Source: Psammoneis japonica
Lineage: Eukaryota
Reading direction: 5' to 3'
Assembly (NCBI GenBank): GCA_008632985.1
Contig: QPGO01000124.1
Coordinates: forward strand, 186,001-243,876
Length of the DNA stretch: 57,876 bases
The position numbers were made by a program, and so were the translations under genes. Position 1 is the first letter of the stretch. Each line of letters starts with the position of its first letter. The notes beneath the pieces are model-generated. The model searched no databases and was not told the DNA's origin. It saw only the letters and a list, made by a program, of their open reading frames with translations. This document shows, in pieces, positions 1 through 57,876 of this stretch.

Positions 1-1399
1 CAACTCAAGTTGTGCCATCAATCATCTCATGTTTTGTTGCACTCTGTCCCCCAATTTTTGTGTGCATTGTGTGGAATGGACAGCTGCAACCTGGGTGCTG
101 ATGTTTTGCGCAGTTGAGAGTCAAGCTGGAGCAGCGGCGCATGGCAGAAACCACGGACAATCTGTGCGTCACATCTCTGGACAACTTCCATCCACACCAA
201 CTGGATCTAATGCCACTTGCTTCATTTCTCTGTTGTTCAATCAAGTCCTCCTTTGCTCTTTGGGGGTCAAAAGCACTTTTCCTCTGTGTGGCGGCCCTTG
301 CAAGTGTGAGAATGTGAGCCTTCCTTTGGCGTCAGTTGGCTGTCATCCAGCCATTTGCAAAGCAATGGATCTGGTTGAAAGCCACTTGTGTTTCTCACAC
401 AAAAAACTGCTGTTCTTGCAGCAGCTCTGGGGGCACTTGAGGAGCTCAAGGAGCTCAAGTTCACAGTTGCTGCCCTCAGTGCTGCACAGCTCTCATGTGC
501 AGAGCCCGCCTCTCTTTGTGTGCATTTTGCCACAATTGTTGGGCCAGCAGCCATGACAGAACTCATGTGCACAGATCTTTCACAGCCAGCTGTGGGTGTG
601 TAGCAAGTCAAGGGATGATCAGATGCACAAGCTGTTGTTTGCTGCTGCATGTCATCAGCTGCTGTCACAGGCACAGTTGAGGGGATGTGTGAAAACAGAG
701 GAGTGAAGGGTGGGCTGTGCACCAGCAAAACACAACAACTGGAGCAGGGGAGCACCACAAGAGGTTGGAAAGACCAAGGTGATGGGTCCCAACCCCAACT
801 GCCCAACACTGGCCACAAGATGGGGGGGGGGGGCAAAAGGGCAGCAGCACACACTGCACTTTTGGAACAGCTGCATGTGCTGACTGCAACAATTCTGCCC
901 CACTGTCTCATCCAAGCTTGTGGGAAATGAGAATGTGGTGGCATGCCATGCTCATTCTCCAAACATGCAAAGATCATCAACATGTGTTGATTGCAGATGC
1001 ACACACAGCTGTTGACTGCACAACGGAGTTTGTGCTGAAAACTGTTTGGAAAATTTTCTTAGATGACAGATCATTGCAAGAAGCAACAACCACCAGCACA
1101 AAAATGTGTGAACCATGAGGCTTGAACACCTGTTGTTTTCCACTGAATGATGACATTGCTTGTCATGCTGCAATGAGGATGTGCCATTGGTGAATGTGAA
1201 TGCAGACCCCATCTCAGAAGGCACAAGAAGTCATGCATGTGAACCCACACAGATGCTGAGGGTGTGTGCAGCTGACTTCAACAAGTGTGCTGTGCAGAGA
1301 TGCCAAAAGAACAGCAAGAACAGTGGCAGCAGAAAGTGGCTGCCCCAAAAGCAAAGAGAGGGATGAGAAAGCAAAGAGCAAATTCCACACATTTTGTGT

Positions 1400-1830
1400 G
1401 AGAAAGAAGCTTGGAAAAGTGCAGAATCTGAGGTGGCCAGAAATGATCATCCAACAGACACCAGTGCAAGAAGGACAGCAGCAGAGAAGCAGGAGGAAAG
1501 GGCATGGGGCAGCAAGAGCTGCAGAAGACAGCTCTTCTTTTGGTGTGGATGGCTTGAGCGTGAAGTCAAGAAGTCACACAAAGAGAGGCAAATCATCTCT
1601 TGATCCAAGCAGCAGGCCTGCTGGATGGTGCCCCTTGAGGATGCTCACAATTGCTTGCAAGGCACCAAGCAGGAGTGCAGAGCTGCTGCACTGGCACCAA
1701 CTCTGAGCTTCCAGAGCTCTGTGGCCTCCTCTCAATCCACAGCACACACCAACTCAGGACACTTTGCAGCAAAGTTAAAAAGAAAATGCTCCAGGCATGG
1801 AAACAGGAAGGAAACAGATGGGAACAGCCA
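1400..1830 (+). repeat. Decayed copy of a dispersed repeat family (other copies at 12890-14310 inverted, and 40897-41640 plus 50510-51240)
   Basis: Shares TCTGAGGTGGnCAGAAATGA and TCAGGACACTTTGnAnnAAAGTTAAAAAGnAAAATGCT with 50647-50980. Boundaries approximate. Confidence 0.6.
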
Positions 1831-2225
1831 GTGCATGACAAAGTGCTGGTGCGGCATGTGCAGACATGCAGAAAAAATTAGCAGGTGAGGTCTTGGGCAA
1901 GGTGCAGCACAGCACGCCAGATGCTGTTTGATGGGTGGCTGCTGTTGCTGCTCTCGGCTCTCAACAATCACCTGACAATCATTCTTGGAGACAGTTTGCC
2001 GGCCACAGTTGAATCTTTTTGCAGCTGCTCTTTGTGCAAGAGAGCAACAACAGAAAGGTGTCCTTTTTCGAGACTTTTTGTTGCAATGAAGTGACTTGGG
2101 AATTAGAAAAGAAGGAGGGCAGCAAACAATTCTTGTGGATGACAAGGTCAATGAGCATGAAGAATGGAGAACAATCAAAAGCTTGACATCTGGCAGCACC
2201 ACAATTGCACACGCTCACTGCTTCC

Positions 2226-3134
2226 GACTTGTTCCAGACTTAGGTGGCGCGCACATGCCCCTTCTCGCAGAAAATTTTTTTTTATGCTTTATACAACATC
2301 GTACATATTTCATTATATTGATCATATCAATTGCTTTTAAGTAAAATAAACAGAATAAACTCGAACAAACAAACAGCCAAACCGGCCATGGCTTTCAGTG
2401 ACCATGACGGCCCACTTTTTTCAGCCTTATGGAAAATTTAATGTCATGACGAGGCCCTCCGTATTTGATATAGTCTATGGCATCAACAACAATAGTGAAA
2501 ATGCTTGTTACAGGTTGCAGCGCGGCACAATAATACTAAATCTGTCAGCAACAACAATTGAGCCTCAATTCACTCACAATTTGCCTCTAAGGACCATTTC
2601 TTTGCCATTACCATGTATACTTCCTCAATATATTCGACGGATTCAAGTGTCTCAATCGTTTATGCCTCTTAAACAGTGAAAAATGGTCCGAAGTCGACGC
2701 CATTGCGTGGGCTGAGCTACCCTTCTTCTCACGTCGTCGGAAACTTATCAATCAACGTATGTTTTATTCGATCCGTTGAATCAAAGTTGTATTCGCGCAT
2801 TGTAACCAAGATTAATTATGTTATGTTAGAGGGTTCATTTATATATAAGAATAATATTTTATACGTTTCTACACACATTTAGACATCTATAAATCGCTCC
2901 TCGGAAAACAGAGCTCTCAACTTACGGTACAATTTAGGGACTAATAACTGAGTCCATCCACAGTTTCGAATACATGGGTACACGCACAAGACCTTTCTGT
3001 ATGTACCCATAACAACACATTTGAAAATTGTTATGTTTTTACTATCGAAAATGGTACCGCAAGTGTGGACCGCGCGTTTCATGCGAAAAGGGTCATTTTT
3101 TCGCGCGTGAGGGCACCTAAGTCTGGAACAAGTC
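2226..3134. mobile_element. Non-autonomous TIR element (MITE-like, 909 bp) with 4-bp TSD
   Basis: Perfect 21-bp TIR GACTTGTTCCAGACTTAGGTG (2226-2246) / CACCTAAGTCTGGAACAAGTC (3114-3134). Flanked by TTCC at 2222-2225 and 3135-3138. AT-rich non-coding interior. Confidence 0.9.
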
Positions 3135-3399
3135 TTCCTTGCAAGCTGACACAGGATGAATTTTTGTCACCCGGTGTTGCAGCACTGTGTCTCAAAGCAA
3201 ACTCTAGACTTGCGCCAGTCCACAGTCCAACTGCTGACTGTTGCGCAAATCATCACTGTCCACCAAGAGTCCAAGTGTGGCACAAATTTGAGCTGTCCAT
3301 CAGGAACTTCCGTGCTGACAGCACAGTGAAAAATGTCATGGTGGGAGGGTCAAACAAAGCCTTGCTGACAATGCAGATTGTGTTGATGAGGGTGGTGAG

Positions 3400-4500
3400 C
3401 TTCAGCATTTGGCTGGCAAAGTCTTGAAACCCCTCCAACATGCTGGGCTCATGGGTGAGGTCAGCACTGGTTCAAGAAATTGCCAGGGCAAACCAGACTT
3501 CTCAATGAGGGGACAGGAAAATGAAGCAATTGTTTTGGGGGATTCAAAGGCAACACATGACTTGCCCCTGCCAATGGCAGCACAGGAATTGGCAACACAG
3601 TGCAATGAAAGCAGAGCAGTTGTCAAGCCATTGACCCAACCAAGATCAGATCATCACCAACACCCCTGTGGACGATCTCATGTGGGATGTCCCATTTCAC
3701 AAATTCTTGGGTGCATGGTCCTCAATCAATGTCATTGCGAGGTTCTCACCAGTGGGTTGAGAACATGTTTTGTTCACATGCAGAGGGATGATGCCATTGG
3801 TGAAGAAATTGTGCAGATCGGTGGTTTTTTGGGCAAGAGAACTGTCTCAGTGCATGGGCCTTTTTCTACAAATGTGCTTGTGATGACACACATGGCAGGA
3901 TCTCAACAAGGACAAGTTTTCTCAGGCCTGGCTTGAAGGCACACCAGATGGAGCCAAGAAGAGCCCCCCTTCTCATCTGATCAGGGGACGCGGAAACAAA
4001 AGTTTGGGCTTTTTTGTCGTGGCTCACATTGGGGTGGTGGAAGAAAGCAGGTTGGCTCAAATTTGCTTTTTCGTGGCAAAGGAAACATGCCCAAAAATTG
4101 GATGTGGTCGTCATGGAACCACATTCAGTGGTGCATGGAAAAATGGAGAAATTGTTGCGCTGAAACTCTTTGATGCTTGCAAAAACAAGGGAAGGGAAGG
4201 AAGGGAAGCTTTTGAGCAAAAACATTTGAAAGGGGCATGGGGCCAACTTGTTCCAACTCCAAAATTCGTTGCTGAGGCTTTCGGTGTGATCTGCTTTGGG
4301 ATGCAAATGGCAGAGCAACCTTCTCAGTTTGCCAGTTTTGAGGATTGGGATGAAGTTGCAAGCAAGCTGGAAGAGAAGTGCGGCTTTCGTCATTTGGACT
4401 TAGAAGGAGATGAACGCAGCCCCAATTTTTGAAATCACATGATGCTTCACGACAAATCGGGACAGATGCAGCCAATTGTGATTGACTTGGAGGTGCGCAA
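3400..4500 (+). pseudogene. Decayed protein-kinase-like gene
   Basis: Broken frames read IGCGRHGTTFSGAWKNGEIVALKLFD (Gly loop plus VAxK) and GFRHLDL...PNF. No Tyr retained. Boundaries approximate. Confidence 0.55.
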
Positions 4501-6409
4501 ATTGCTCCATTTTGCTCAAGTTAGAAGCTTTGAGAGCGCGTCAATTTGAGTGCTCTGTTGTTGTCACAAACCATGTGTGCCATGGTGTTGAAGGATGCTG
4601 CTTTCTGCCCCAATGCCGCGCTTCCACGTGCATCTTCTTTTTTACAAAAATGCATTTCCAACCAACTGACATGACACCGTCATAAAGTTCTAGACCACCT
4701 TTGGGGTTGCATGAAAGCCTGCTGCTGGCCACACTTTTCTGTTTTGAGACATTTGTTCATTGGCTGTTCTTCACACTTCTGCTGGCTTTGGCTTAGCGGC
4801 CAAGTGGTGTGCTGCCAGCACTGCACTGCGTGCGGCATTTCAACTTTTCATGAACTCTGGCTGGCTCTTGCAAAGTGTCTTTTCATCTTTGTGTGGCTGC
4901 CACCCTGCTCCCTTGGCACAAAAGCCATCTCACAGGCAGCTGTCATGGCTGGCATTGTTGTGCTGCTGACACTTTGCACCAGGTGTGTGCATGGGCTTTG
5001 TCTGGGATGCACAGAAATCACAATCTGTGGGTGTGACAATCTCATCAACACTGCTGGCATGTGGCAGCACTCAATCTTTTGCTCAAGAGGAGGTTGCCAC
5101 TCAACTCTGAAAGAAGAAGCACAGCTTGCAAACTCAAGATGTTTTTGCTTCAATGCCAAAAAGTGTCAACGTGGCTGTGGTGCTGTGTGCCACCACTGAG
5201 CAGCTGAGTCCCACCCAAGAGGCTCAACAGCTCAGCACCAGTGCTGGACTGAGTCACAGCTGGCCAAGTCAAATCACACATTTGATTTGAAAGAGCTTTT
5301 CATGGTCAGCCACAATGAACTCAAGCTGCCACTTTTTCAACAACTTTTGTCTGCCAAGCCAGAAGGGCATGCAACAGCAGCTGAGTCATCAACCACGCTG
5401 TCCCCATGCTGAACTTGACATCACAGTTCCTGCAAACAAGTGAGCACAGCTCAGATGCAGTGAGCAACAAGGACAATGATGACAAACTGACTTCAGTGCT
5501 CAAGAATGAAATGGAAACACAAATTCACCTGGTGTGTGCAAACTTCACACCAGCTTGACATGCACAAGGAAATTGCTGCATCCTTTTGGCACTTGGCACC
5601 CAGCTTGAGCGTCACCACAGCGCCCTCCCTTCTCACGACTTTCTGCCAGTGCAAGCAACATCTTTGAACAAGTTGTGCAAGCTTGGCCACTTGCAACAAG
5701 TTGACAATGAGGCTGGACTCATGACAGGAGCCCCTCTTTGCACTTTGCAGGTCCTCTGCAGGTCACAATGATGGTCAAAGCAAGAGACACAGAGTGGCAG
5801 AAAAACGTGCCACACACCTTCATTTGCAAGCGGCTCCCTTCCCCATGCATGTGGTGCAAAAACAAAAAGCAAAGAATGTGCAAGAGAGTGCTCTTGAGAA
5901 ACAGTGGCAAAAGCAGCATCGCATGTTGCTGAAGACAAGCTGCACTTTTAAAGACAGATCTGGTGCGATGCTTGCCCAGACTGTGGAAACAAGTCCCAAC
6001 AACTTGTTGGGTGGCTGATGCTGTGGAAAGAGCTGGCTGCAGTGGCTCAGCACCCGGTGCAAGTGTGCCTTGACCACTGCGGAACAACACAAAACTGTGT
6101 GGGCACTGCTCTGGTGCAAAGCATGCTGAAGTGTGTCATTTTTAGGGTTTAGGTCATTGAGCAGCTTGAACTTTTGTGCAATGATCTGTGGGAGGTTTTT
6201 CCTCTCCCCGCACACTGTGCAGACCTCCCATGAATTGGCCGCGCGCTCGCTCACTTATCATCGCGCGAGAACCCGCGAGGCACCCGCATACGTCGCGACC
6301 CTTTATCTCTGTTTGCGTCCCACTCCAGAAGTACTATGGTAGAGAGGGCCTTTGTGCATGTTTTTGTTTTGCCTGTATCGTCAAGAGAAGAGTCTAAACA
6401 CAAAAAACA

Positions 6410-7534
6410 ATGAGACAACGTATGCTTCTTGTTCGTCCCATGGCGAAAGCTCTTTATCCAACAACAAAAACGACGACTCGAGCGGCCTTTCTTCACTCAT
6501 TCGAAAAAAGCAAAAAATCGCCCGTGCGCGATACAAGGTTGGCAGGACGAGTCCGTTTTTACAAGTCGGTAGGAGTGACTTCAGTGTCGGCTCCATGGGA
6601 AGAATCTCTGAATAAAAGTAGCAGTAGTATTGAATCACCCATCAGTGCGGGTGTCGATGGTACGCAGAGTGCATCGGGTGTTTCTCTCGACATGCCGACA
6701 CGCGAGTCGCTCCAGGAGCTCTTGACTCCACGACGACACTTTTCCAAACAAAACAATTGCAATTGGTTTGGTGTCACTCTGGATGGACGTACCATCAAAA
6801 CTCCGTTGGGACAAACACTCGCGGTTCCATCTCAAACGTTAGCTTGGGCCATTGCGGCCGAATGGGACGCTCAAGCGAAAACGCTACAACCGGCTCAAAT
6901 GCCACTCATGACCTTGGTGTGTACCACATTGGATCAAACCACTGCCAATCCAAGCATGACACAAACTCAAACGTTGCAATATTTACCCACCGATACGACA
7001 TGTTATTGGGCCGATCCAGCCGAAGACCGTGTCTTGTATCGCAAACAAGAAGAATCGTGGCAAGGTCTTCATGAGTATGCTTGTGCGTATTTGATGGGTA
7101 GTACTACTACCGATAATCATGCATTGTTACCCGCACGTGCCGTGGGTGCGAGCGAAGGACTCCTCATGTCACGAGCACGCAAAAGCAAATCTAGCAGTGG
7201 ATTGCCACATCCAACGGAATTTGTACAAGCTGCCACAAAATGGGTCGAGGGTTTGGATGCTTGGCAATTGACGGCAGCACATTCCGTGGCGGCAGCCAGC
7301 AAGAGCTTTTTCATCAGCATGGCCGTCGTGACGTCGGATATTACTACTACTACAAATCATCCCTTTGCAAACGACTTGTCCAAGGCTGTCTTGGCAGCTC
7401 GTGTCGAAGAGGAGTTTCAAATTGATAATTGGGGATTGGTCGAAGGGGGGCATGATTACGATCGTCTCAATTGCTCGATTCAACTTCATGCTGCACACTT
7501 TTTGACGTCCGCCATTGCGTCGGACACACTTTGA
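6410..7534 (+). CDS. ATP12: Mitochondrial F1-ATPase assembly chaperone ATP12/ATPAF2
   Basis: Intact 374-aa ORF with RFYK, VTLDGRTIKTP, AIAAEWDAQ, MPLMTL, TDTTCY and ARVEEEFQIDNWGLVEGGHD motifs. Basic N-terminal presequence. Confidence 0.95.
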   Translation: MRQRMLLVRPMAKALYPTTKTTTRAAFLHSFEKSKKSPVRDTRLAGRVRFYKSVGVTSVSAPWEESLNKSSSSIESPISAGVDGTQSASGVSLDMPTRESLQELLTPRRHFSKQNNCNWFGVTLDGRTIKTPLGQTLAVPSQTLAWAIAAEWDAQAKTLQPAQMPLMTLVCTTLDQTTANPSMTQTQTLQYLPTDTTCYWADPAEDRVLYRKQEESWQGLHEYACAYLMGSTTTDNHALLPARAVGASEGLLMSRARKSKSSSGLPHPTEFVQAATKWVEGLDAWQLTAAHSVAAASKSFFISMAVVTSDITTTTNHPFANDLSKAVLAARVEEEFQIDNWGLVEGGHDYDRLNCSIQLHAAHFLTSAIASDTL

Positions 7535-7752
7535 TGAATCATCATGAGGAACTATAGAGTAGTGGAACGGAGGAGTTGTTGACAGAAGAGGCGTACAAAG
7601 TATCCATACCGTACTGAACATTTGACGCATGGAATAACATAATATGTGGATACACTCTATGATTTAGTTCACCACTACACAATCAAGAGTATCGTTTCAC
7701 GATCTTGGACATGCATTTCCTGGCCAAACATGCAACACGAAGAATCTTGCTT

Positions 7753-9293
7753 TTAATAAATAACAGTGTCCTGAAGCCACTGCGCCGGTTCATCATCCAC
7801 CTCAATCGGAGGGTGCTTTCCTCGATTGGCGTCTGGATTCTTGGGCAACTGTACGAGAAGATCCGTCTCGGCTTGACGAATGACAATCTGTTGGGGAGTG
7901 ACATTAATGACTGAAAAGTCCTGCGCCAACATGACGGGACCGTCATAGGTAGACGTCACTCCCTTAAAGTAGGGATCAATCGTATTGTCGTCCTGGTAAT
8001 AATGATAGGCAACTCCAAGCTTAGGTTTGGCAATGTCAAAGAGTTTGCCGAGTTTATCGGCGGTCGTGTGACAGGACGTGATTCCTTGCGTGATGGGGAG
8101 TGGAATATCGTAAATGTCCGACATGGTTTGGGCATCGAGAAAGTTTTCGTGGATAAACACGTCTGCATCCGCAGCCTGCTCCGCCTCAAACGTAGAGGGT
8201 GAGCCATCACCGTGATAGGTCATGCTACGGCCATTCCATTCAAGACGGTAACCCACGGCTCCTTGGATTTCATGAACGACCGGAAATGCATAAATCTTGA
8301 CGCCGTTGTTGTCGTAAATGAGCTGACGAGGATTCTCAGGACTAAACAGGGAATAGTCAAACTCGTGTGCAGCAAGAATCATGCCGTCCGATACCGCCAC
8401 GCCGTTGGACTTGCCACGAAGATGCCAGGCCGATGCCGAATGGACGGCATCCACAAAGTGAGCGGTACCAAGCTCAGGACGAGAACCCGATGGCCCGTAC
8501 ACATTGAGAGGCCTATGCACAACGAACAAAAAGATAGTGTTAGCTTCTCTTTGCGTACAACATAGAAATCAATAATATCATACCAGCATACAACTCACCT
8601 GTTTCGTCCCCAAATCATGGCATCATACATGGAGAAGATGTCACCGACGTGGTCAAGATGCAAGTGCGTGATGAAGAGCTTGTCAAAAATCGCAGGAGGA
8701 AAGCCCAAACTCCAGAGATTCTGGGTCGAGCCGGCTCCAATGTCAAAGACAAAGTTATCACCGTTGCCCAACTGCACAAGCCATCCAGCAGCTGCTTGGG
8801 CACGACGAACATTGGGATTGCCCGAACCAAGGCAAACCAGACGCATCTCGTCCGGTGCTAGTTCTTCCTTGAAGGGGTGAGCAGTCTTGGGGTATTCTTT
8901 GAGCTTGGATTTTTTCATGTCTGCCAGGGGAATGACGTTTTGAGTAGCCATGGCTTTGCCGGTAAGAGGCAAGGGATATCCGAGAGGCGTCTTCTTGCTT
9001 TTCAAGTGTCCGCCTCGAATCCCCGGGATCAGCTTGTGCTTGAAGGGCTTGGCACTGCCAAGCATTTCAAGCTCGTCTGAGGAACTTGATGAATTCATGG
9101 AAGCCAGCAACAAGGTGGCAGCCATGACCGTCAACAACACCATTGCGAACCCTTTCTTCTTGATCGGACCAAACGATTCTTCGAACCGACCACCGAAGCG
9201 AAGCTTGTGGTCGGTTGAGGCGGGTTTGCCAAGTTCTCCATTCGAGGAGGAACCAGCCAGCAGACAATCATCTTCTTTAGCGAACTGATTCAT
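7753..9293 (-). CDS. RNase Z/arylsulfatase-like metallo-beta-lactamase-fold hydrolase with N-terminal membrane anchor; 2 exons (9293-8599, 8512-7753), about 484 aa
   Basis: Motifs LGSGNP, FDIGAG, THLHLDH, GDG, HE and HT. GT-AG intron 8598-8513 (GTGAG donor, CTAAC branch point) joins WGRNR-PLNVYGPSG in frame. Confidence 0.9.
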
Positions 9294-10024
9294 CTTGATT
9301 TACATAGAGTGGAGAAAGCTCGGCGAACTTTGGTGATATCTTTTTTTGTAAAAAAGTGAGGAACAGCAAGAAAGATCCGTGTCTCTGGATGCCAAAAAGT
9401 GACACAACAAAAAGATTCATCAGGTAATGAGGTCATTCTTCAGTCGCGCAAAACTCATTTCTCAGTACAAAAAGTACGTGCATTTCTACGAGATCCTGGA
9501 CTTCTGACATCTGATCAACGTTCTCATGTCACAGATTCTCCATTCAACGCAGTGCAAAGTGCAACGACCATTGCAACTCTACAGAGCCATGGCTTTGTTT
9601 GCTTCACTAATTCCTTTTAAGTCCATTGTCACTTCTGCAAAGTGAGTCCTTTGCTTCTTTTTTGCTGCTCTTGCGTGCTGTCCCGCCGCTCTCTTTGCAA
9701 CTCTGCCTTTGTTTCACGGCCACACCCTCTGCGTGTTTTTCTGTGTGAGCTCTGGTGCAGATGCCGCCTTTTTCTGATGGTGTGATGATGGTTCTTACCT
9801 GCCTGTTCAGACATGTTTTTTTGTTGACATGCCATCATTCCATGATCATTGGCAATCTCATGCAGTGGAAAACGAATTGCACCAAGCTCTCATGGCTCAT
9901 TTGCTCGACGCTCTTCTCTCGGCATTTTTTGTTCTCGCGTGCAAAGTTTCCACACAGGTCTCAGTGCAAATTCTGCACATTCTGCAAGTCATTTCAGATG
10001 GATGACTCATCAAACTGCCGATTG

Positions 10025-46973: not shown

Positions 46974-48302
46974 CGCCAATCGCATCAGACGCTCATTGCG
47001 CGATTTTGCGGCCCGCATGTGGGCCGCAAAAATCTTGTCGCAAATTTTTGCGGCCCACATGTGGGTCGCAAATTCTTAAAATGATGCTTGTCTCGGAATG
47101 CGCGCACAAAACTTGTGTTGCCAACATCCATCGTTGCACGCGTGCATTTCTCAGTGGCACGCAACAAACTGCAGCAGCACAATGGTGCCCACCGCCAGTC
47201 TCCCACTTTGCGGTGTGACATCTCAATGATCCTCACACTGATTTCCCCATTTCTTTCATCAACATTGGGAGGGAATGCACAATGTGTCTAAATGGGTTGG
47301 TCCCATCTTCTGTCACTGAGAATTGTGGATTTCTGTTTTGTTCGAAACCACGCAGAATTTTCAAATTTGGAAAAGCACGAAATGACGGAATGAGCACCAA
47401 TTTGCAAACACTGCACAAACAGTTGTTCTTTTGTGACATGCCAAAATAGATGAAACATGGTCACACGGAATGCGGTTTCCAATGGCAGTCACTTGGCTGC
47501 TGATCTAGTCTAGTTCCTCAACCGTGATGACAGATTGTCACGCCAGCTTTTTTGTGGAGTCAATGGAGCGGCTGTTGCTGACACATGTTCAGCAACAATG
47601 AGCTGTGGATCTCGTGCCTCAACTGTGATGTGATGAATTGCAGACATGCCAGCTTTGCAAGGAGCAAACACTCTCTTTCAATCTCTGCCAATGCCAACTT
47701 GTGTCCTCCTGCAATGGCTCCGTCACCGCGGCGCCTGACCTCTCCTTCATCTGCGCCCATCATGTTTTCTTGACACTTTCCCAAATTGATCACATGGGCA
47801 TGGGCAATGACCTTGAATCGTGCTTGAGCTCTCTTGGCCATTGGCGACTCCACAGGAAGACTTGGAGGGGGGGCATGTGCGGGTGCAGATGGTGCTTCGG
47901 CAGCAGACTGCGACACCGGATTTCGCGGCATGTCTTGAACAGGCGAAGAAGGCATGTCCGTTCCCGCTGCAAGCAATGCTGACACATCTGGCACTTCTCT
48001 GATGATGTTGTCAGGCGTCCGAGATTGCTGGAGTGAATGTCCTTGACCGGTGTGGCCCGCCGCAGGGTCCGCCATGGTGGAGGGAGAAATCGGCGAAAAA
48101 GTGCGCGAAAATGCGTGCACATTTTAGAGGCTACGACAACAACCACTGGGACTTTTTTGACAGATGAAGTGTCGATTCCCATGTTTTCGGGCATGGAGAA
48201 TTTGACTGTGGGGTCAATTCATCGACCATCTCTGTCATTGAAGATTTGAAAAAATTTGCGGCCCACACATGGGCCGCAAACGGGCATCTGATGCGATTGG
48301 CG
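46974..48302. mobile_element. Non-autonomous TIR element (1.33 kb) inserted at a TTAA site in the gypsy protease
   Basis: 16-bp TIR CGCCAATCGCATCAGA. Flanks are TTGA (46970-46973) and TTAA (48303-48306). Removal restores KTQTIKALLDSG. Subterminal GCGGCCC...GGGCCGC palindromes at both ends. Confidence 0.88.
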
Positions 48303-51300
48303 TTAATGGTTTGAGTCTTGCCCTTGCCATGTTTAGTGTTCATAGCCACAAACAAGATTGGAGTAAGATGAGTCTTTTTAACTTGTTTGCGGGATTGGCC
48401 TGCAACTCGTGTACGATGGCAATTCAGTTGTTCATTTGTGCATTCATCCAATGCATTAAAACTGCGGGGGTCACCGATCCAGTGTTTGTCATTCATTGTC
48501 CCGGACGATTGCTTGTTCGTTGGACTTTGTTGGCGAAGAAACGTGACAATTGCATTCAATGTGCTTTTGTTCGAACATTTGGTGTGAGTTGAGCTCACGT
48601 CATTGATGACGTCACAAGGGTCTTTCTGGGTGGGCGTGCGTCGGAACTGCCTGACACCGGCCTCGTTTGGCGTCGAAGGCTCAATTAAAATGGCAACAGA
48701 TGATGTCATCAACCTAAGCAGGAAAATGTCCGACGTGTCTTCATGTCTCACGGATTTCATTTATGAAAATAACAAACACTGCATTTGCGGTCAAATGCAG
48801 AAATGAAATTATTTGGATTCGTTGGCAGTGCAATGCTCGTGGAAACAATGCGAAAAACAACAAACACTGGATGTGCACCCTGCGCGATTTCGATTAGATC
48901 AGCGATGCCTGTGCCTGTGTCGTGTCGGCCCCCTTCTCAGGTGCCCAAATCTTCGGAATCACTTAAGTTGAGGTCGCGGAAGTGATTGAGCTCCTCCTCG
49001 CGTGCCTTGCGCTTTTTCTGAGCGTTGGCAAAGAACTCCTCGACCTTCGATCCGATGAGAGTGTCAATGTCTTCCTCATTCCGAGGTTTTGTGTTGGGCT
49101 TGCTGCCTCTGTCATTGGAATGTCCAGTCTTGACACGTTTCACGTGGTGCTTGAGCTGACGGCAATCCTCCGCATGATGTCCACAGTCAGTCCCGTGTGG
49201 CATGCACGACTTCTGGGTGTTCGGTTGGGTCGGGATCAATGACTCAGGATTGTCCATTCTACGTCCCCGCTTGCGTGGAATCTTAGCATTTTGGTCCAGG
49301 TTGCCTTCGGCAAGCTCGACCTGCTCGATGCGCTTGCAGAGCTGCACAAATTCGGTGATGGCATGCGCCAACGAGTCAAAATTCTGCAACGTCATGAACT
49401 TCTGCCATGCGTTTGGCACACCACACTCGAACACATTGCACAGTTCGTCATTGGGCAATGGTGCGGTGCTTCTCCATCCTCCGTCACGGGTGGAAACTGA
49501 GAGATGTGGCCGTTAATTTCAACAGCCCTTGCGACGCAGTCACGAGTGGAAACCTCTGCGGGCTTGCGCATGAAGCGCCTCAGATGACACTTCTGCAATG
49601 GTGCCGCCCCATGTGGGAAGACACTTTCCTCTAGCTTCGCGATGCACACTGCGTGTGCAGCATTGGTTTCGGATGCCTGCGTGTCAGCGGCATTGTTGAA
49701 TGACGTCAGAGCATCGCCCTGTGGTGGGTCACGCACAAGGGCAAATTTCGCTGGCCCGGTCATCATGTTTTGTCCTTCGTGCACGCGATCCACGTTGCGC
49801 AGAAAGATTGGGAGTGTCTCGCATGTAGCCGCAGAAAGGTGTGGGATGCCCATCTTGTGCGTTGGACTGTCCGGATCAGCAGGGTTGTTGCGCAGTTTGA
49901 ACATCTGGCACTCGCCCTGCTGTGGCTCTTTCTTCTCCGGCCGTGCAAACGGAATCGGCGGCTCAACCCGCTTCTTCATGGTCGTTTTGAGATTTGTTGG
50001 TCCCACCAACATTTCGTAGTTTTGTTTCTGTGGATTTCGTCACCTCGCACAACATGCGGGAGCAATGTTGCTGTGCCCCATGCATGCACCAGGCGCTGAA
50101 AAAGAAGATGTGTTGCGACTTTGTCGTTGTGAAAATTGTGAGCCAGCTCAGAGCAGAGAAAGTGGGATCGTGCAAACAGGGAATCTTGCCAAATCCCCAT
50201 TTGTTCGCATTTGGATCGCATCAAATCAATCGTGCATTCGCACTGTGGATCATGCGAGTCAAGCCATCACGCACCATGCATGAGTGATGTCATCGTGTGG
50301 AATCACGCTGCCATCGTGGGCCAGACGACGGGCCAGTGTGCTTCACACGGATGCTCTCTTAGCATCCTTCTGGAATTGCCTGAGACCTAGAGCCACGCCC
50401 TCCTGTGGTCGTGCTTCCCAGGTGCGCGTTGACAATGCTGCATTGTCACGCACAAGAGGCTTGTGCACGGTCTCGCCATGTTGTCCAGTGGCAAGGCATG
50501 CTGCACTGGACCTGGAGTGCGTCTGCTTTGCCAAGACCAACAAAAAGGAACAGTGCCAGCAGCAGAAAGCAGCTCTGCATGTTGGAGCAGCAAGCAGCCA
50601 GAGCAGCAACAGCAACAAAAAGATGAAAAGAGTGGAAGTCACAGCATCTGAGGTGGACAGAAATGACCTCCAGCATGCACTGGGACAAGGTGGGCAGCAG
50701 CAGAAGCAGCAGGGCAAGCAAACAAAGGCTTGCTTTTGTGAGGAGGGGATGAGCAAAGTCAAAAAGTCATGCAGAGAAAAGCAAACCAGCTTTGTGCAGC
50801 CTTGGTCAGGTGGTGGCTCACGCACACGTTGTCATGCACAGCCACAGCTGCTTGTGAGAGACACCAAACACGCAGCACAAAAGAGGGTGTGCTGCTGGTC
50901 AGCTCCCAGCTGCAAGAGCTTGGCCTCTTGCATCACCAGCTCAGGACACTTTGTACAAAAGTTAAAAAGCAAAATGCTTTGACCAGTGTGTGTGGCACGG
51001 TGACAGGAAGTGGGTGAGACAAGCCTTGTTTGAGAGATGAAGGGGGGTTCAGCTGCCAAGCACTGCTGCAAAGACGAGAAGAAAAGACTAAAGAGAGATG
51101 GGAAACATGCAACAGCTGACAATGGCACCTCTTTCTGCTTGGAATGCCTTTGCATTTTCTGAGTTCACTCTCCTCGTTGCTTGTGTTAGACTGGTGAAAT
51201 TTGTGCCAAGATCTGTCCTCTTTCTTGCAGAAAAATTCAAGTCAGAAGCACAAAAAACATGCCAGAGCCTGCACCACCAGTGGCGTAGAATGGTTCAGGG

Positions 51301-52799
51301 TGCACACAAATTTTGTGCCACAGTGGCGCACGTGATTTTTACATGAGATTCTACATGTGCCCAGTGGCACAGATCCAGCACAAAAGCAACAAATTTTTGA
51401 AGTTTTGTGGCGTACAAAGTCAGTGTGTTGTGGCATAGATTCGACATCAACAAGGCTTCGCGCAACACTTGCAACAACCAAGACAACAGAAAACCGCTCG
51501 CAAAATGTTGCTCCCACTTTACACGTTGCAGCTGATGTGGTGTTGTTCATTCATCTCACTCCTTTTCATCGTGGAACCTCCTGATGACACAGAGGGTGTC
51601 TTTCAGGCATGTGCATTGGTCTGATTGCCCCCCCTCTTTGGGCAAGAATGGGGCATGTGGTTTGCTTCTTGAAGACACCAGACCAGCCACAAGGAGCTTG
51701 CAGTGGAGAGCTGGCAAGCAAAGCACTGGGCTGCGCCACAAGGCACTGGCTGATGGGACAGCATTGGGCAAGCACAACCACAAGCATTTTCCTGAGGGCA
51801 CTTTGCACCACATGTGACAAAGCCAGAAACATGGACTGAGAAACACAGACAGAGCCAGGTTTTGCTCAGCTGGCCACCCAGAATTCAAGCAGGGGTGCAG
51901 CCAGAATGAAGAAGGCTGCAGGTCAATTTGAGGTCCCAGTGGGAACTTGCTTTGCATGTTTGTTAACAGCCTGCTGCAGAAGCCATGGCTGCGCTGGAAA
52001 TCCAAAGGTGGCTGTGCGTGATGGGGTGGATCTTGCAAATTCTCTCAAGATTTTGTCATGCATGAGGCCAAAATTTGGGTGCAGCATCCACAGATGCTTT
52101 GGGAGAGATGCTGTGAATTTGTCAAGGCAGGCACTTCTGACAGCATGGGTGGGGAAGGCCAGTGCTTGTTGCCAGGGATCTTTGTGAAGATCTTTTGAAG
52201 AGGGTGACACTGCATTTTCTCACTTGGAAACTTCAGAGAATTGTTTGAACACAGTGGGGCTAAACCCGCTAAAGTGTGCATTGAATTTTGGAGAACAAAG
52301 AAGACACAGATCCGCAGCAGTGGCCACCAAGCTGGCGGGGCAAGGCTTGGAAAACAAGCTGCTCAAAAAGCCATGATGGGCTGGCAGCAAAACAATCCTC
52401 ACAAATGATGCCACTGTCAAGCTGCCACAGACTGGCACAACTCCACAGTTCTCCAGCATGCTGTGGGAGCACACAAAGCCACAGCACCTCAAGTCACAGA
52501 CAAGCTGCTCTTGCAGGCAGAAGGAGCCCAGCCAAGGGTTGCAAGTTGACAGCCCCACAGCATCTTCTCTTTTTCTCCTTTTTCCTTTTTTCCTCTCTCT
52601 CTTCTCCTTTTCAGTTTATTCTTCTGAGCTGCCTCCGGCGGCCACCTCTTTCATTCTTCCCACATGCCGAAATCTCACGTTAGTGCGCGCTGCATCACGG
52701 CGGTTTAAAGCTGTGTTTGACTAGCTAGATTAAAATGACAAAGGGGCAATGTGTGATGACTCTAAAAGTTACCCGATTAAGCATGTAACAAATTCGTCT

Positions 52800-53115
52800 T
52801 TAAGTACGGTATAACCTTCTGACGTCGTTTCCCATATGTACGGTATAAAATTTGTACCGTACATAAGGTCAATCACTTAGGATGACCTTCCACGTCAGCG
52901 AAGTCGACATGTCCGTTCCCCAATCGGCCTTTCTGTCATTGTATTTAAATGTGGATGTCATTTTATAGCGTACATAAGGGAGATTTATAGCGTACATAAG
53001 GGAACAATGACCCTTCATCGTCAGCAAGTCCATATGTACGCTATAAACTTTATAAAGCTACTTACTTTTAAAGGATGACCGTCTGCGTCAGCAACATCGT
53101 TATGTACGCTAACCC
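52800..53115. repeat. Cluster of about 7 TATGTACG(C/G)TATAA motifs in both orientations
   Basis: Copies near 52803, 52835, 52853 (rc), 52963 (rc), 52985 (rc), 53034 and 53101. Confidence 0.75.
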
Positions 53116-54299
53116 AACACCATTTGACGACCTGCCGAAATTCACGTGCGAAGTCAGTCCCCCCGATTTTTCTTATGCAAAAAATGGAGTTGGAACGCCG
53201 TTCTTTTTTGGTGTGAGCTCTTTATACAATAAACAATGCGTACATTATTTCAAAATAGTCAGATTCGATGAAAGAAACAGTAGAACAGTCTCTCAAATGC
53301 CACTGAGCAACAACAACGCGCAGTTGGCTGGCTGTCAGTTTCCCACCAAAAAACACCGCTTTCGAGACAGCACTTTTCTTGCATGTGTGCACCCTCTGTT
53401 GGAGGGTTTTGAGCACCCCAATTGGTTGAATGGATCGGAATTGCTCAGGATGTCCGGATGACTTACATTTGTCTTGATGGTTGCAAATGTCCGCAGCTGA
53501 ATCTGTCGCCACAAGCCCATGATCGAAAAGGCAATCTGCCGATGAGATCCACCACGGGAATGGAAACAACATGTGTTGTGAAAGGAGAATAAATGTCATT
53601 GAGGAACATGGTGGAATGGAGAGAAAGAGGATTCCACCTCACCCAAGTGTGAGACCACACTCGCGCAGATGCAATGTTCGCATTTTGGCAAAGTGTGGCC
53701 AGCAACTGCGACTGCGCTGGAGCATCCTTTGACTGCCATTTTCATCGCACCCATCGATGCAACATCGCTGGGTTCTGAGCATTGCTTTCCTGGCTGCTGC
53801 TTTGTCAGAGCCAACCACTTTTTAGCCAAGGAGAGACGTTCTGTGAGCGACCAGGATGCGCCCAGCATCAAGATTCGAATCGAGAGTCAGGGGCAGAAGC
53901 ACTCCTGCCGATGCACAGCTGAGGAAGTTGAGCAAGCCGAGGAGGTTTGCGCCCATGTCGAGACCTCAAGGCAACTGGCAATTGTCAAGGCAGTCGAACG
54001 AAAGCCAGGAGAGCCCGCCTCGCCTCTTGCAGATCCGGTGGAGGATGCTGGATTGACGACATCGACAGAGCCAGAGCTTCGTGTCTTGAACAATGGGCTC
54101 TTGACACTCGAGCCGGGCATGAGGAGTGCCCGTGACAAGGTCACAGAGGCCCAAAGAACATTTTGTTGACCAGCGAAAACAACACTGTAACATGCTCAGG
54201 AACAAGAGCTCAAAACCAGTGACGAGAACACTGCAAAACCGACCACGTGGAGGACAAACTGCACCCAGGCCTTCCGTGGACGCCACCTTCTGGGAACTC

Positions 54300-57200
54300 C
54301 AAGGCACATTGAACTCTCCCCACTCCAAGATGACTGACACCGATTGGGGTGGTGATGCATTCCCAGATGCACCACCTGTCAACGACGATCTCAAACTCTT
54401 CTTGACCGACCCATCCAGTGGACCCGGCCTGTCTGATGCCACGGCCAACCTCCTGCACAGCCACGGGATGCACACCATCAAGCAGTTTGTTGAGTTCTCA
54501 TCCTTGCCCCTCATTGCTGTCTTTGACATGATGGGGTGTGAACCGTTCAAGAACCTTGGCTGAGGCCGCACGCATTCAAGCCCATGGCATGCATGCCAAG
54601 GACAACCTCACTGACAAGGAGGGCAACACCGACGTCACTCTGTTCAACTCGGAAGCATTCTTTGCTCTCAGGCAACAACATGCACGCATCATCTGAATTG
54701 CCCTCTGCAACGCCTTCAGTGAATGGCACGCACCAACAGCGCAACACCACCACCAAATGCCAGCACCCCCACGGCACCCACACCTGACTCATCCGCGGAA
54801 GCTTCCACCCCAGCAACCGCCACAGCCCCTCTGACCCCCACCACCACAGCCGCCAAGAATGCCCCGGCCAAGGACCACCGTTGGACCCACCACCCACCCA
54901 CTCTGCCTCCCACCGACTCACCTCTGCCGGAGGCATCCCCACTGCTGCGGTTTCCGCCCTGATGCCCGACCACCCCATGCGGCATCGCCCACTGCGCCAC
55001 ATCATGGCGACAGGGGGGGATGCCCAATTGATGACGGCGCTCTCTCCGCTCCCAATTCTGACAGTGCCACACTCTCCTGCATCGATGTGGAACACTGCCA
55101 TCACCTGCGGAACCCTCTCCCATGTCGCTCCAAGGAACATCACCATGTTGTCCGCAAATGGCACCCCATGTTGGTCAAGATCACATGGGACGGGGACAAC
55201 GTGACATTCCCACAAGTCAAATCCCTGTTCGAGGGGCACTGGATCATGCAACACGCTGGCTGCATGATGGACCCTGACTTCCTGCAGGCTTGCGAGGAAC
55301 ATGGCAAGCAAGTCTTAGAGTTGATGCCTGACTTGCAACCCAGCATCACCCTTGCTCAACTCCTGGCGGACCGCGAATGTGTCTGTGGCGCCTCAGTCAC
55401 GGCATGCCACAAGGGCGTGGGCAAACAATTCCCAATGCCACACAAGAAGGACAAGGATGGGTTTGAGGCTTGGCACGCATTCCCAGAACACCACGAGGGC
55501 AAAGGCACATCTGACTCACTGTGATCCAACTGGGAAGATGCCATCAACGTGAGATGCTCTCAACACTGCACCGGGGGAGTGACAGCATTCATCAATGACT
55601 GCAAAACTGCCTTCACAGAGATCAATCAAATCAACGTTGAGACTGCCATGCATCAAGACACACCTGCACACGCGGCATGCCAATGGACGGATGGTGCACG
55701 CAAGGCATGGCTGCTCACTGACCTCTGCTCCAACTCGACGAGAGACATCGTGGCCCAATGCGACTCCCTGTCCTGTGGCAAGACCTTAATCCGCCTTCGA
55801 AAATGGGCACATCGGCATGACAAGGACCGCATGGAGAACAGCTGTCGACGTGCCAAGACTGCCAAATGGGAAGCTGCCCCTCTGGATGACGACTTCAAGA
55901 CCATCCTCCATGCCACAGTCGAAGCACACATCAACGCTGTGCATCGCACCCGGAAGGGCACGGATGTCCCCGACGATTGCGACACACCTGCCGAGATCCT
56001 GCAATTGACGCCAGACAAGGACAAGGGCACCATTCTGCACGCCGTGATGAGCTCGTTGACAAACTCATTGCCGATGTCAACCAAGACACATCACCATGTA
56101 CAGATGGCAAGCACAGACACGATGACAAGGCTCTGCCAAAACAGCACCCAAACCGCAAAGCCCAGAAGACAGCTGCTGTGCACAAACAGGCATCAACTTG
56201 CCGATGAACCTCTGATGACTCAACCACATCGTCTGTGTCCAGCACCAGCACGACAAGCAGCGGAGGTGACACCACACGGTCACTCCTCAAGGTGTCCCAA
56301 GACCTGGTGGGCCTGTTCCGCTCCGTAAACATGACCCGCTCCGTCATCAGCAGCATGCCATCCCTCGAGGCACATGCACTCCTGGGACGTGCCAGAAATG
56401 ACCAACCGTTGCTCATCTCTGATGGCGGTGCTGACACCGGAGCATTCGGACAAGGCTGACATCCATGTGGAGACACAGGACGGAAGGCCAACCTCATCGG
56501 ATTCAATGAATCACTGCACGTGTCGATGATCTTGCCATCACCAGTGTCATCACAGCAGTGGACTTGCCTGACGACTCTGTGGTGCTTCTAGCCATGCACA
56601 AGGGTGCAGCCAACCCCACCGTGCCCTTCTCACTTTTGTCGGAATGCCAATGTTGCGAAGCAGGGTGCATCGTGGATTCAGTCGCCCGACATCACCTGAG
56701 TGGATCTGGCCACCGTGGTGCACAATGTTTCACCACACCCAACAGTGTCATCATCCCCTTCTCAACACACGGGGCACTCATGACTGTCCCACACTGCATG
56801 CCCTTGGATGATGAACTCTGCAATCTCACCCCCATTGACATCACTGGATCTGAAGCATGGAACCCTGCCCTGCACTGTGCTGATGCCCAAGATCCTGATC
56901 CGGGTTTAGTCGCAGCACAAGTTTCCTCCACTCATGCCGCACGGGGGGACATGCTGGATCGCAACAATCTTAAAGACGCAACTGCAGTCACCATCAAAAA
57001 CATCAACCATGACGAATGATGACTCGGTCCCTGACCTGATCAACCGCGGAGCCAACGATGACGATGACAGCACTGTGACCTCCAACAGCTTGGTCCCAGC
57101 ATTGATCAGCCGCAGAACCAACGATGATGATGACAGCACTGTGACCTCCAATGACTCAGCACCAGACCTGATCCTCCGCAACAACAATGATGATGATGAC

Positions 57201-57876
57201 ACAGTCGACACTGCCTTCATTCCCGATGATGACTTGAGGGCCCGCTGGAAGACCAAGGCAATCAAGGAAATGAGATGCAAGAAGACGGGAACAACCCACA
57301 GGACGACAAGTCCGTCCCCGGCCTTCGTACACAGGATGACAGCTCAGTGGGATCCGACAAAAGCGAGCTGCCTGACTTGCCTCATGAACCGAGACCACGA
57401 ACATGCTCCAACGACATCATGCCCGTGCACCCAGAAGACACCGAGGATCCTCCGTCACCTGCTGATGAAGAATTCCATGACTGCCTTGTTGATTTGGAAG
57501 AGACCGTCGTGGATCCCATCATCGGTGTGGAACTGCAGTTCATGGACGAATCGATGTCGGGCCAACAAGACGGCATCACTCACGATGTAACGACACACCA
57601 ATGCAAGCCCAAGATGAACCCCTGCACTTCTTTGATGCATGGGAACGGGTCCCAGGACAACACAAGCGAGCGTTCCACCTGACTTTCTGATTGCGCCCAC
57701 ACTGCGACTGTCAAAGAATGGGATCTCGATGAGCACCTAGATTCACTGGACGATGACGAACTGTTCGGCAAGAACGCACCTTTTGACTCCTTTGCATGTG
57801 CCACCCGGGTGGCTCAACGTTCCTTCACTGAATCCGAACTGGAAGCTCTGCGCCCCAACTTCCCCTTCCGACCAAG
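54300..57876 (+). mobile_element. Second Ty1/copia (CoDi-like) element: decayed gag and protease, running off the window; 5' boundary uncertain
   Basis: gag-like KITWDGDNVTF...FEGH; protease ISDGGADT and LLSECQCCEAGCIVDSVARHH; EALRPNF at the window end parallels ESLRPHF before the integrase of the first copia. Confidence 0.8.
57015..57210 (+). repeat. 66-bp coding tandem repeat, about 3 copies (DSVPDLINRGANDDDDSTVTSN)
   Basis: GATGACAGCACTGTGACCTCCAA recurs 66 bp apart, followed by a third diverged unit. Confidence 0.85.

Follow-up and report, generated by a model that had tools for sequence, protein, structure and literature searches.

Mobile-element copies in a probable diatom chromosome have very likely lost TpA to TpG and CpA by targeted mutation after insertion

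We analyzed a 57,876-nucleotide, transposon-rich stretch of nuclear DNA, probably from a diatom (hereafter the window), most of which is nearly devoid of the dinucleotide TpA (TA). The evidence makes it highly probable that mobile-element copies in this chromosome underwent locally targeted mutation of TpA to TpG or CpA after they had inserted. According to the model that we propose, elements insert, and their chromosomal copies then lose TpA on both strands, site by site. Inactivation comes through missense changes (Tyr to Cys or His, Ile to Thr, Met or Val, Lys to Glu, and others) that leave the gene-like frames long, and a separate decay of CpG to TpG or CpA runs within the same TA-poor blocks. 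Targeting would follow a mark of silenced chromatin or of "foreign DNA" and not copy number. The process would be of the same kind as the TpA-only hypermutation of integrated viral DNA in Bigelowiella natans.

The window as a whole contains 785 TA, and its observed/expected ratios (O/E) are 0.22 for TA, 1.57 for CA, 1.55 for TG and 0.66 for CG. Count-based segmentation by TA defined six long TA-poor blocks and, between them, five TA-normal intervals. An initial annotation of the window had already drawn TA-poor intervals, and the segmentation limits agree with them to within about 100–200 bases. The six TA-poor blocks are as follows.

1–2152: TA-poor block, TA O/E 0.04, CG O/E 0.11, no recognised protein domain (Pfam)
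3183–6182: TA-poor block, TA O/E 0.06, CG O/E 0.23
9617–14284: TA-poor block, TA O/E 0.06, CG O/E 0.36, mostly a repeat with about 25–30 copies by depth
18888–39381: TA-poor block of 20 kb with nested elements, TA O/E 0.07–0.11
40900–52581: TA-poor block, TA O/E 0.07–0.2
53381–57876: TA-poor block, TA O/E 0.06

Pooled, these blocks comprise 44,503 bp, or 77% of the non-N window, with O/E values of 0.08 for TA, 0.56 for CG and 1.64 for both TG and CA, whereas the pooled TA-normal intervals (11,043 bp) gave 0.63 for TA, 1.02 for CG and 1.18 for TG/CA. Across the TA-poor blocks we counted 220 TA, where 1647 would be expected from the ratio in gene blocks and 2618 from base composition. On both strands together, the same blocks hold 201 TAA, 122 TAG and 1962 TGA triplets. 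GC content was 51% in the TA-poor and 46% in the TA-normal blocks, and AA was not reduced (O/E 1.22 in TA-poor vs 1.16 in TA-normal blocks). CG O/E ranged from 0.11 to 0.86 among TA-poor blocks, and the depletion of TA and CG was correlated across 13 of them (Spearman 0.73, p = 0.005), the older-looking blocks being lower in both. A 4-mer mass balance between TA-poor and gene blocks was uninformative, since their base compositions differ. The repeat in 9617–14284 reached a read depth of 1170–1750 vs about 53, and related copies lie at 50543–51221 and 40897–41627. An assembly gap of 353 N (26354–26706) falls within the 20-kb block; the apparent GC of 0.29–0.34 in windows at 26001–27000 arises from N counted in the denominator, and the N-corrected GC of 24812–26353 is 0.49.

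Within the TA-poor blocks, the only Pfam matches were to copia reverse transcriptase (RT), to gypsy RT, ribonuclease H (RNase H) and integrase, and to two small domains (SAP, KOW). Most open reading frames (ORFs) in TA-poor sequence had no credible match in a Pfam search of the window's ORFs that included 16 further ORFs at E 0.5. Together with self-comparison and homologue alignment, the following features were delineated.

23546–24250, minus strand: PIF/Harbinger-type transposase remnant, with 150 homologues
28000–33753, plus strand: copia-type polyprotein remnant, with RVT_2 at 32361–32840
33746–34483: tandem array of ~190-bp units found by self-comparison, also related to 47198–47379
34576–38135, minus strand: pair of long open frames (650 and 597 amino acids, aa), no Pfam match even at E 0.5
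42021–50506, minus strand: gypsy-type long terminal repeat (LTR) retrotransposon, with LTRs at 42021–42456 and 50073–50506 and pol at ~42506–45700

The gypsy RT, RNase H and integrase matches span 42542–44991 on the minus strand. A pair of 434-bp direct repeats, 91% identical, brackets this pol region, and the integrase end lies 86 bp from one of the repeats; this arrangement identifies the whole as an LTR element.

To polarise the changes recorded in these elements, we used outside homologues as the outgroup, namely 120 full-length gypsy polyproteins, 120 full-length copia polyproteins and 150 Harbinger transposases aligned by tblastn. Columns were used if at least 30 homologues were present and agreed at ≥70% (60% for Harbinger). 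The resulting spectra were as follows.

gypsy: 513 conserved columns, 378 identical, 88 single-step changes
gypsy changes: A>G 36 (33 after T), T>C 24 (22 before A), G>A 10 (8 after C), C>T 4 (4 before G), transversions 14
copia: 855 conserved columns, 650 identical, 134 single-step changes
copia changes: A>G 33 (27 after T), T>C 19 (18 before A), G>A 37 (35 after C), C>T 13 (11 before G), transversions 32
Harbinger: 85 conserved columns, 74 identical, 7 single-step changes
Harbinger changes: A>G 3 (3 after T), T>C 1 (1 before A), G>A 2 (1 after C), C>T 1 (1 before G), transversions 0

In gypsy and copia together, 60 of 69 A>G changes followed a T and 40 of 43 T>C changes preceded an A. Transitions at A:T pairs made up 60/88 changes in gypsy and 52/134 in copia, where a further 46 were of the CpG type. 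The seven Harbinger changes comprised three Tyr to Cys, one GTA to GCA, two of the CpG type and one other. Over the three elements, 104 of the 229 polarised changes were of the TpA type and 60 of the CpG type. This split into two types indicates that two processes are recorded in the elements, TpA>TpG/CpA and CpG>TpG/CpA. The A-to-G change at TpA that the initial annotation had read from motifs thus appears in a polarised spectrum as an excess at TpA over other contexts.

The effect on tyrosine was nearly complete. Among 74 conserved Tyr columns in the three elements, one was kept, 40 had become Cys, 23 His and 10 another residue. None was kept in copia (43 columns; 23 Cys, 15 His) or in gypsy (27 columns; 14 Cys, 8 His), and one of four was kept in the Harbinger remnant, the other three being Cys, including that of the motif DRGC. 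The remnant also carries one Val to Ala (GTA to GCA) and two Ile to Met, which are ambiguous changes. The altered motifs searched for among those singled out earlier were all found in place, with Cys or His standing for Tyr at catalytic positions: CVDD (32760–32771), ALHGL (32616–32630) and ETATHGSE (33469–33492) in copia, MGCCHI (44680–44697), HSDD (44515–44526) and AFCSRK (44006–44023) in gypsy, and DRGC at 23822–33 in Harbinger. Other expected products were present as well (ATA to ACA or ATG, TTA to TCA, CTA to CCA, GTA to GCA), as were Lys to Glu, Thr to Ala, Ile to Val and Asn to Asp behind a codon ending in T. Gly was retained at 29/31 and 70/74 positions and Pro at 32/36 and 46/50, and Asp, Ala and Trp were mostly retained. 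The outside homologues are Tyr-normal, with a median Tyr content of 4.0% in the 240 gypsy and copia proteins and 3.2% pooled in the 150 Harbinger proteins. The initial annotation had raised, against its own reading, the possibility that active elements are themselves TA-free with Cys or His at these sites. The check did not go against it: Tyr stands at these sites in the outside homologues, and the two LTRs became different only once inserted.

The frames at 34576–38135 show the same residue bias. The 650-aa frame contains 3 Tyr, 25 Cys and 25 His, the 597-aa frame 2 Tyr, 18 Cys and 24 His, and judging by this composition they probably represent one or more hypermutated genes of an unclassified element that are still open. 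Between copies of the ~190-bp array we counted 11 CA/TG double differences, 16 CG/TG or CG/CA differences and 5 TA common to both, which may be context-protected sites.

The LTR pair of the gypsy element places the changes in time. Of 434 aligned positions, 36 differ between the two LTRs, with 33 of the differences inside pyrimidine–purine (YpR) sites and 3 outside. The site pairs were TA/TA 0, TA/TG 2, TA/CA 4, CA/TG 7, CG/CG 18, CG/TG 5 and CG/CA 8. LTRs are identical at integration, and these now differ; each LTR thus acquired its changes on its own, once the element sat in the chromosome. Under an estimate in which the two LTRs lose sites independently and TG and CA are equally likely products, about 18 ancestral TpA were present, which is a normal TA content, and 0.80 of them were lost per LTR (TA/TA expected 0.8, observed 0). 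For CpG, the same estimate gave about 33 ancestral sites with 0.27 lost per LTR, and other sites changed at 0.008 per site per copy. The hazard at TpA was therefore about 5 times that at CpG and, per base, about 100 times background (35–500, Poisson limits on three events).

We next considered relatives of these elements in public collections. Among 120 near-length relatives of the gypsy RT, three proteins were almost Tyr-free (P0274, P0297 and P0244; Tyr 0.5–0.7%) and carried Cys or His at 9/11, 8/12 and 13/17 conserved Tyr columns, respectively. The Harbinger matches P0382 and P0460 contained no Tyr at all. P0455 and P0499 (Harbinger) and P0283 (gypsy) likewise had no or almost no Tyr and raised Cys plus His; the sources were JGI, ENA and Logan assemblies. 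No mutated relatives of the window's own gypsy family were found above 64% identity.

With P0274 as the query, we recovered 80 metagenome loci of one gypsy family that is unrelated to the gypsy element of the window. Across these loci TA O/E fell from 0.84 to 0.06, while mean TG/CA rose from 1.08 to 1.69 and GC from 0.42 to 0.50. In an alignment of 46 full RT segments, the letter carried by most of the 16 TA-normal copies served as the ancestral state, which resolved 1046 of 1188 columns with 50 ancestral TA and 28 CG sites. Retained TA sites ranged from 49/50 down to 10/50 in the main subfamily and reached 6/50 in three divergent, near-identical copies. Lost TA had almost always become TG or CA; in copy L028, for example, 10 were kept, 22 were TG, 18 were CA and none was anything else. 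Rates were tabulated for 31 copies after dropping near-identical duplicates and nine divergent copies (other divergence >0.15). A>G occurred at 255 of 1394 sites after T (18.3%) vs 1.5–2.2% after A, C or G (54/2787 or 1.9% after A, 2.2% after C, 1.5% after G). T>C before A reached 179/1145 (15.6%) vs 1.2–2.2% elsewhere, C>T before G stood at 78/774 (10.1%), and transversions at 0.84%. The TpA rate was thus roughly ten times that of other contexts. Set against other divergence, the loss of TA was 1/50 at 1.2%, 5/50 at 1.9%, 26/50 at 2.4%, 7/49 at 4.3% and 40/50 at 4.4%. This lack of proportionality in the aligned sequences suggests that the dose may be set by the copy or the locus, a suggestion limited by the shared ancestry of the copies. 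At one locus, L046, an element with TA O/E of 0–0.3 is flanked by two genes, one for a 2-hydroxyacid dehydrogenase and one of the Nop58 type; TA is normal beside the Nop58-type gene, and this flank yielded no usable taxon.

Both data sets define the sequence context. In the metagenome family, the rate at the edited A by its 3′ base was 0.27 for T, 0.24 for C, 0.06 for G and 0.07 for A, and the base two positions before was less important. In the window, the survival of TA relative to gene blocks was highest in TTAA (0.44), CTAA (0.30) and CTAG (0.25), lower in GTAA (0.15), GTAC (0.07) and ATAA (0.05), and lowest in ATAT (0.007) and ATAC/GTAT (0.004). These ranks fit independent hits on both strands with relative rates of about 2.5, 1.4, 0.75 and 0.4 for a following T, C, G and A. 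The edited A prefers T-A-Y (Y, pyrimidine). The direction of the outcome also varied with context: at Tyr and ATA codons, TG/CA counts were 5/13 after A, 17/6 after C and 6/1 after T, so that CA prevailed after A (13/18) and TG after C or T (23/30; Fisher p = 0.002).

Strand and spacing patterns point to single hits. TG and CA outcomes were mixed within each copy (23:15 and 14:12), and no strand-coordinated runs of TG or CA were detected in copia (z = +0.98) or gypsy (z = −1.58). Among 16 copies of the metagenome family, L044 (z = −2.9) and L056 (z = +2.6) alone stood out, and heterogeneity of TG:CA gave p = 0.051. The RT segment of L044 has CA outcomes in its first half and TG in its second, and this copy may be a recombinant or reflect a single strand-coordinated episode. 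With site propensity allowed for, lost sites showed no patchiness within 1.2 kb (mean z = −0.17, n = 20, p = 0.42). On the scale of whole blocks, the TG count is below CA in 53381–57876 (skew −0.127, binomial p = 0.00014), yet TG O/E is 1.92 vs 1.42 for CA. The interval 26707–33700 behaves similarly (skew −0.069, p = 0.01; TG O/E 1.77 vs CA 1.50). Such block-wide asymmetry could stem from the base composition of the elements' coding strands, or the process could be biased by replication or transcription.

The genetic code explains why so many frames stay open. TpA>TpG/CpA yields no stop codon in any pair of sense codons, and because stops are never created, many long frames remain: the window holds 92 of at least 150 aa.

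The DNA that was spared bears on targeting. The TA-normal intervals contain the following features.

2226–3134: insertion of 909 bp resembling a miniature inverted-repeat transposable element (MITE), with perfect 21-nt terminal inverted repeats, TTCC at both flanks and TA O/E of ~0.75
6183–9616: gene block with normal TA (Pfam), non-coding parts at TA O/E 0.37–1.05
6398–7531, plus strand: ORF of an ATP12-family gene (Pfam)
7756–9299, minus strand: metallo-beta-lactamase-fold gene (Pfam), with an intron at 8512–8597
14285–18887: gene block with normal TA (segmentation, Pfam)
14470–16653, plus strand: receptor-like gene with a periplasmic-binding domain (Peripla_BP_4, E 6e-40) and the end of a class-C 7tm_3 domain
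16618–18558, minus strand: ORF of 647 aa
39382–40899: AT-rich, repeat-structured island, TA O/E 0.69, CG O/E 1.26, no ORF of at least 100 aa
52582–53380: AT-rich island with short palindromic sub-repeats, TA O/E 0.79, no ORF of at least 100 aa

The initial annotation had described TA as normal in four genes. The gene blocks are indeed normal, but they account for only two of the five TA-normal intervals (6183–9616 and 14285–18887). Introns and intergenic parts of the gene blocks had a TA O/E of 0.80 (83 TA in 1356 bp). Non-coding DNA in these blocks is thus TA-normal too, and the contrast with the TA-poor blocks is not due to selection on coding sequence. TA-poor borders lie 200–330 bp from gene ORFs. 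At one such edge, TA O/E was 0.19 in the first exon of the beta-lactamase-fold gene (8598–9299) and 0.37 in the upstream segment 9300–9616, beside the TA-poor block beginning at 9617; that first exon had no excess of Cys or His (3 Tyr, 2 Cys, 7 His), and the low TA at 8598–9616 could be leakage into the gene edge or mere codon usage. A contig of the data set X2 joins position 8511 to 8598 and skips 86 bases bounded by CT..AC, or GT..AG when read along the minus strand. X2 is recorded as "DNA?", covers mainly gene blocks and skips this intron, and so behaves like RNA; its lack of coverage in TA-poor parts was given no weight. The diatom assignment is based on one Atlas match: for the ATP12 protein, the nearest cluster (score 0.95) occurs most often in Bacillariophyta.

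The MITE-like insertion sits within a TA-poor block. Its read-word depth of 3770 vs about 53 corresponds to about 70 copies, and its CpG is normal as well. The insertion is missing from a paralogous copy of the old element around it (contig joint 2149 to 3144). It is probably young, still mobile and non-coding, and inserted into an old TA-free element; the AT-rich island at 52582–53380 is probably another young non-coding insertion. Spared sequence includes gene introns, promoters and this ~70-copy MITE, and single-copy TA-poor blocks also exist (depth about 53–60). With a high-copy element spared and single-copy blocks depleted, the process does not follow copy number, unless the MITE escaped by being too young or not long enough. 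The "repeat-restricted" label given by the initial annotation consequently holds in one sense only: TA loss is confined to transposon-derived blocks, but nothing resembling the homology sensing known from repeat-induced point mutation (RIP) was seen, as a ~70-copy MITE in a TA-free block keeps its TA.

We also compared the window with X1, another read set of the same sample; of the three runs of this sample that contain the stretch, X3 gave no coverage. X1 contigs cover TA-poor stretches at 824–1955 (12 differences), 4187–6235 (6) and 10934–11739 (3), each with 3–10 small gaps, and X1 word depth over them is about 53, equal to that on genes. TA-free sequence thus occurs in X1 too and is not an artefact of one assembly, which was the error that the initial annotation had proposed to look for in raw reads. 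Where X1 and the window disagree within single-copy TA-poor DNA, the differences were mostly of the CpG type, with only one at a TpA site (601), and comparison of the two read sets gave no sign of ongoing TpA change.

Several points count against post-insertion mutation targeted at mobile elements, or narrow it. All of the evidence comes from standing sequence, with no de novo mutation observed, and X1 is not a second individual. The rate estimate relies on one LTR pair with three background differences, and the target-site duplication of this gypsy element was not resolved. Common ancestry of the copies, as well as the use of a consensus, can inflate the counts from the metagenome family, whose host could even be the species of the window. 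Large TA-poor parts (1–2152, 3183–6182 and 53381–57876) have no transposon protein recognisable by Pfam, which speaks against strict transposon targeting. As to the chemistry, an A>G change cannot be told by sequence alone from T>C on the opposite strand, and the one natural ADAT2 with demonstrated deamination of A in DNA favors 5′-GAA-3′ and not T-A-Y, according to the available part of that report (PMC10354150).

With these reservations, the chemistry could quite possibly be enzymatic deamination of adenine to hypoxanthine in DNA, which is read as G, although we hold this part of the reading tentatively. The pure transitions, the tight dinucleotide rule and a rate far above that of spontaneous processes are in its favor. 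A less likely competitor places the lesion on the other base: the thymine at R-T-A (R, purine) would be modified, in the manner of 5-hydroxymethyluracil (5hmU) or base J, or damaged, and would mispair with G to give T>C by slow decay without an editing enzyme. TpA is self-complementary, and all of our results fit T>C at R-T-A equally with A>G at T-A-Y. The joint rise of TA and CG depletion (Spearman 0.73) looks like the decay of two marks in the same chromatin, and site-independent loss without patches or strand runs would suit a diffuse decay. In dinoflagellates, 5hmU replaces part of T. Against this reading, the literature matches listed for such thymine modification all concern dinoflagellates. 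TA loss was also not proportional to divergence in the metagenome family, and only some B. natans lines mutated in the available part of the preprint, which suggests a process that is switched and not a clock.

Error-prone repair synthesis in heterochromatin by a polymerase like DNA polymerase eta (Pol eta), which would place G opposite T at WA motifs (W, A or T), is very unlikely. Pol eta produces A>G at WA in somatic hypermutation, and the restriction to transitions at A:T pairs agrees with this. WA includes AA, yet A>G after A was 1.9% vs 18.3% after T; AA O/E was not lowered (1.22 vs 1.16), and no mutation patches were found (mean z −0.17, 20 copies). The initial annotation had offered such a polymerase as one candidate, which the missing AA signal in the metagenome gypsy family disfavors.

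Editing before integration, by an ADAR-like A-to-I activity on retrotransposon RNA or by deamination of cDNA, has a negligible probability. Animals do have retroelements that were hyper-edited and bear clusters of A>G. ADAR favors G after the edited A, whereas G was among the least favored following bases here (0.06). The LTRs of one element differ at 13 TA-derived sites in different ways; TG and CA are mixed in each copy, where editing of RNA or cDNA would give a single polarity; and the signature is also present on a DNA transposon remnant. ADAR does favor U before the edited A, as noted in the Discussion of the B. natans preprint as available (10.64898/2026.01.13.699255). By the LTR comparison, the mixed polarity and the DNA transposon, pre-integration editing was ruled out for the bulk of the signal.

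That no mutation process acted at all, and that TA was natively avoided or selected against, removed by GC-biased gene conversion or lost through an assembly or base-calling artefact, is scarcely credible: long TA-free frames could look designed and GC is 51% vs 46%, but homologues are Tyr-normal, CVDD and HSDD stand where catalytic YxDD boxes belong, the LTRs became different in situ, gene conversion would lift all A/T>G/C changes whereas only those at TpA are raised, and the pattern recurs in the second read set as well as, at graded levels, in unrelated metagenome assemblies.

Post-insertion mutation at TpA thus remains the reading that we adopt, and it invites a broader proposal. Diatoms, and perhaps the stramenopile–alveolate–rhizarian group, given that a chlorarachniophyte shows it as well, may possess a chromatin-guided defence in which an enzyme edits adenine in double-stranded DNA at T-A-Y, on both strands and in silenced mobile or viral DNA only. 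It would remove Tyr, Ile and other codons to saturation and never produce a stop. Such an enzyme would perhaps be a natural DNA adenine editor of an uncharacterised kind, and the system a counterpart of RIP with another base and another signal. If this is true, a process known from a single 2026 preprint on one chlorarachniophyte also runs in diatoms, which are major marine primary producers and in part genetically tractable, and does so there at saturation and on all main transposon classes. The enzyme acting at TpA, the guiding mark (with borders a few hundred bases from genes) and the antiquity of the process in this part of the eukaryote tree would become testable. Work on base editing could profit from knowing of a natural adenine editor that acts on chromatin. 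Annotation is affected in practice as well: hypermutated elements keep long frames that gene predictors will call as genes (for example, those of 650 and 597 aa), and profile searches fail on them, as most TA-poor ORFs have no Pfam match. Tyr-free transposon proteins are already present in public collections, and a database-wide scan could map the process.

Among known systems, RIP of ascomycete fungi is likewise a permanent, dinucleotide-specific inactivation of transposons by point mutation in the chromosome, and leaves sharp compositional blocks. RIP creates stop codons. In the part of the cited source available, it consists of C>T changes, mainly CpA>TpA (PMC2621366). RIP therefore makes TA and lowers GC, whereas here TA is removed (O/E 0.08), GC is higher and no stops arise. 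RIP is also triggered by duplication, while in the window a 909-bp MITE at ~70× depth is unmutated and single-copy blocks are depleted; this second difference is weak, as the MITE may be too young or too short. The decay of CpG through 5-methylcytosine resembles the present case more closely in form, as a self-complementary YpR dinucleotide turns into TpG or CpA in methylated transposon DNA, and it is present in the TA-poor blocks here. CpG decay cannot remove TpA, however, and TpA was lost about 5 times faster in the LTR pair.

Deaminase-driven, clustered transitions that cripple retroelements are familiar from ADAR and APOBEC3 in animals. Unlike the changes described here, which are post-integration, lie on both strands and extend to a DNA transposon, those enzymes act on RNA or cDNA before integration and with one polarity, and APOBEC makes C>U. 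The zinc deaminases TadA and ADAT2–ADAT3 convert A to inosine, and evolved forms of TadA serve in adenine base editors. The tRNA target of TadA/ADAT, A34, follows U33, and the E. coli tRNA-Arg loop reads U-A-C-G, which fits T-A-Y. In the available portion of one report, BjADAT2/3 acts as a deaminase on both A and C of DNA, in vitro as well as in E. coli, and BjADAT2 favors hairpin loops of single-stranded DNA (PMC10354150). Its GAA context, as given there, is unlike T-A-Y.

The closest parallel is B. natans. As described in the accessible part of a preprint by Mettrop et al. (10.64898/2026.01.13.699255), 231 of 302 nuclear mutations in mutation-accumulation lines fell in integrated giant-virus and virophage regions; 230 of these 231 were A>G or T>C, and all of those were on TpA. 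The rate was about 6e-7 per site per generation vs 3.5e-10 elsewhere, in some lines only. TpA-depleted coding sequences (CDS) were enriched for RT and DDE domains, TpA-depleted clusters enriched in CpA plus TpG were found, and the authors propose an ADAT2-like deaminase (10.64898/2026.01.13.699255). The initial annotation knew of no description of the phenomenon in diatoms. The literature searched indeed holds neither TpA-directed hypermutation nor TA-depleted transposons in diatoms, but the phenomenon itself is in print for B. natans.

As far as the preprint text extends, the two cases share transitions at TpA that are confined to foreign-derived regions beside a normal genome, at a rate orders of magnitude above background, which here is an indirect estimate from one LTR pair. 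In neither does copy number appear to be the target: the insert of nucleocytoplasmic large DNA virus (NCLDV) origin in B. natans is single-copy, and here a 70-copy MITE was spared. Activity may be uneven in both, among lines there and, here, in the doses among copies of one metagenome family (7/49 to 40/50 lost; these copies share ancestry, and their loci were not placed). They differ in host, a chlorarachniophyte there and a probable diatom here, and in the kind of record, de novo mutations there and a fossil footprint here. The depletion is near saturation here (O/E 0.04–0.1 over tens of kb), whereas TpA makes up 3.3% of the dinucleotides within the NCLDV region of B. natans. Here the targets are LTR retrotransposons and a DNA transposon, with strong CpG decay alongside. 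The window also shows the flanking preference T-A-Y, while the accessible preprint text gives no flanking-base preference and no diatoms. Judged from its sequence, the window looks like a new lineage for TpA-only hypermutation, at saturation, across transposon classes, with a T-A-Y preference and beside CpG decay.

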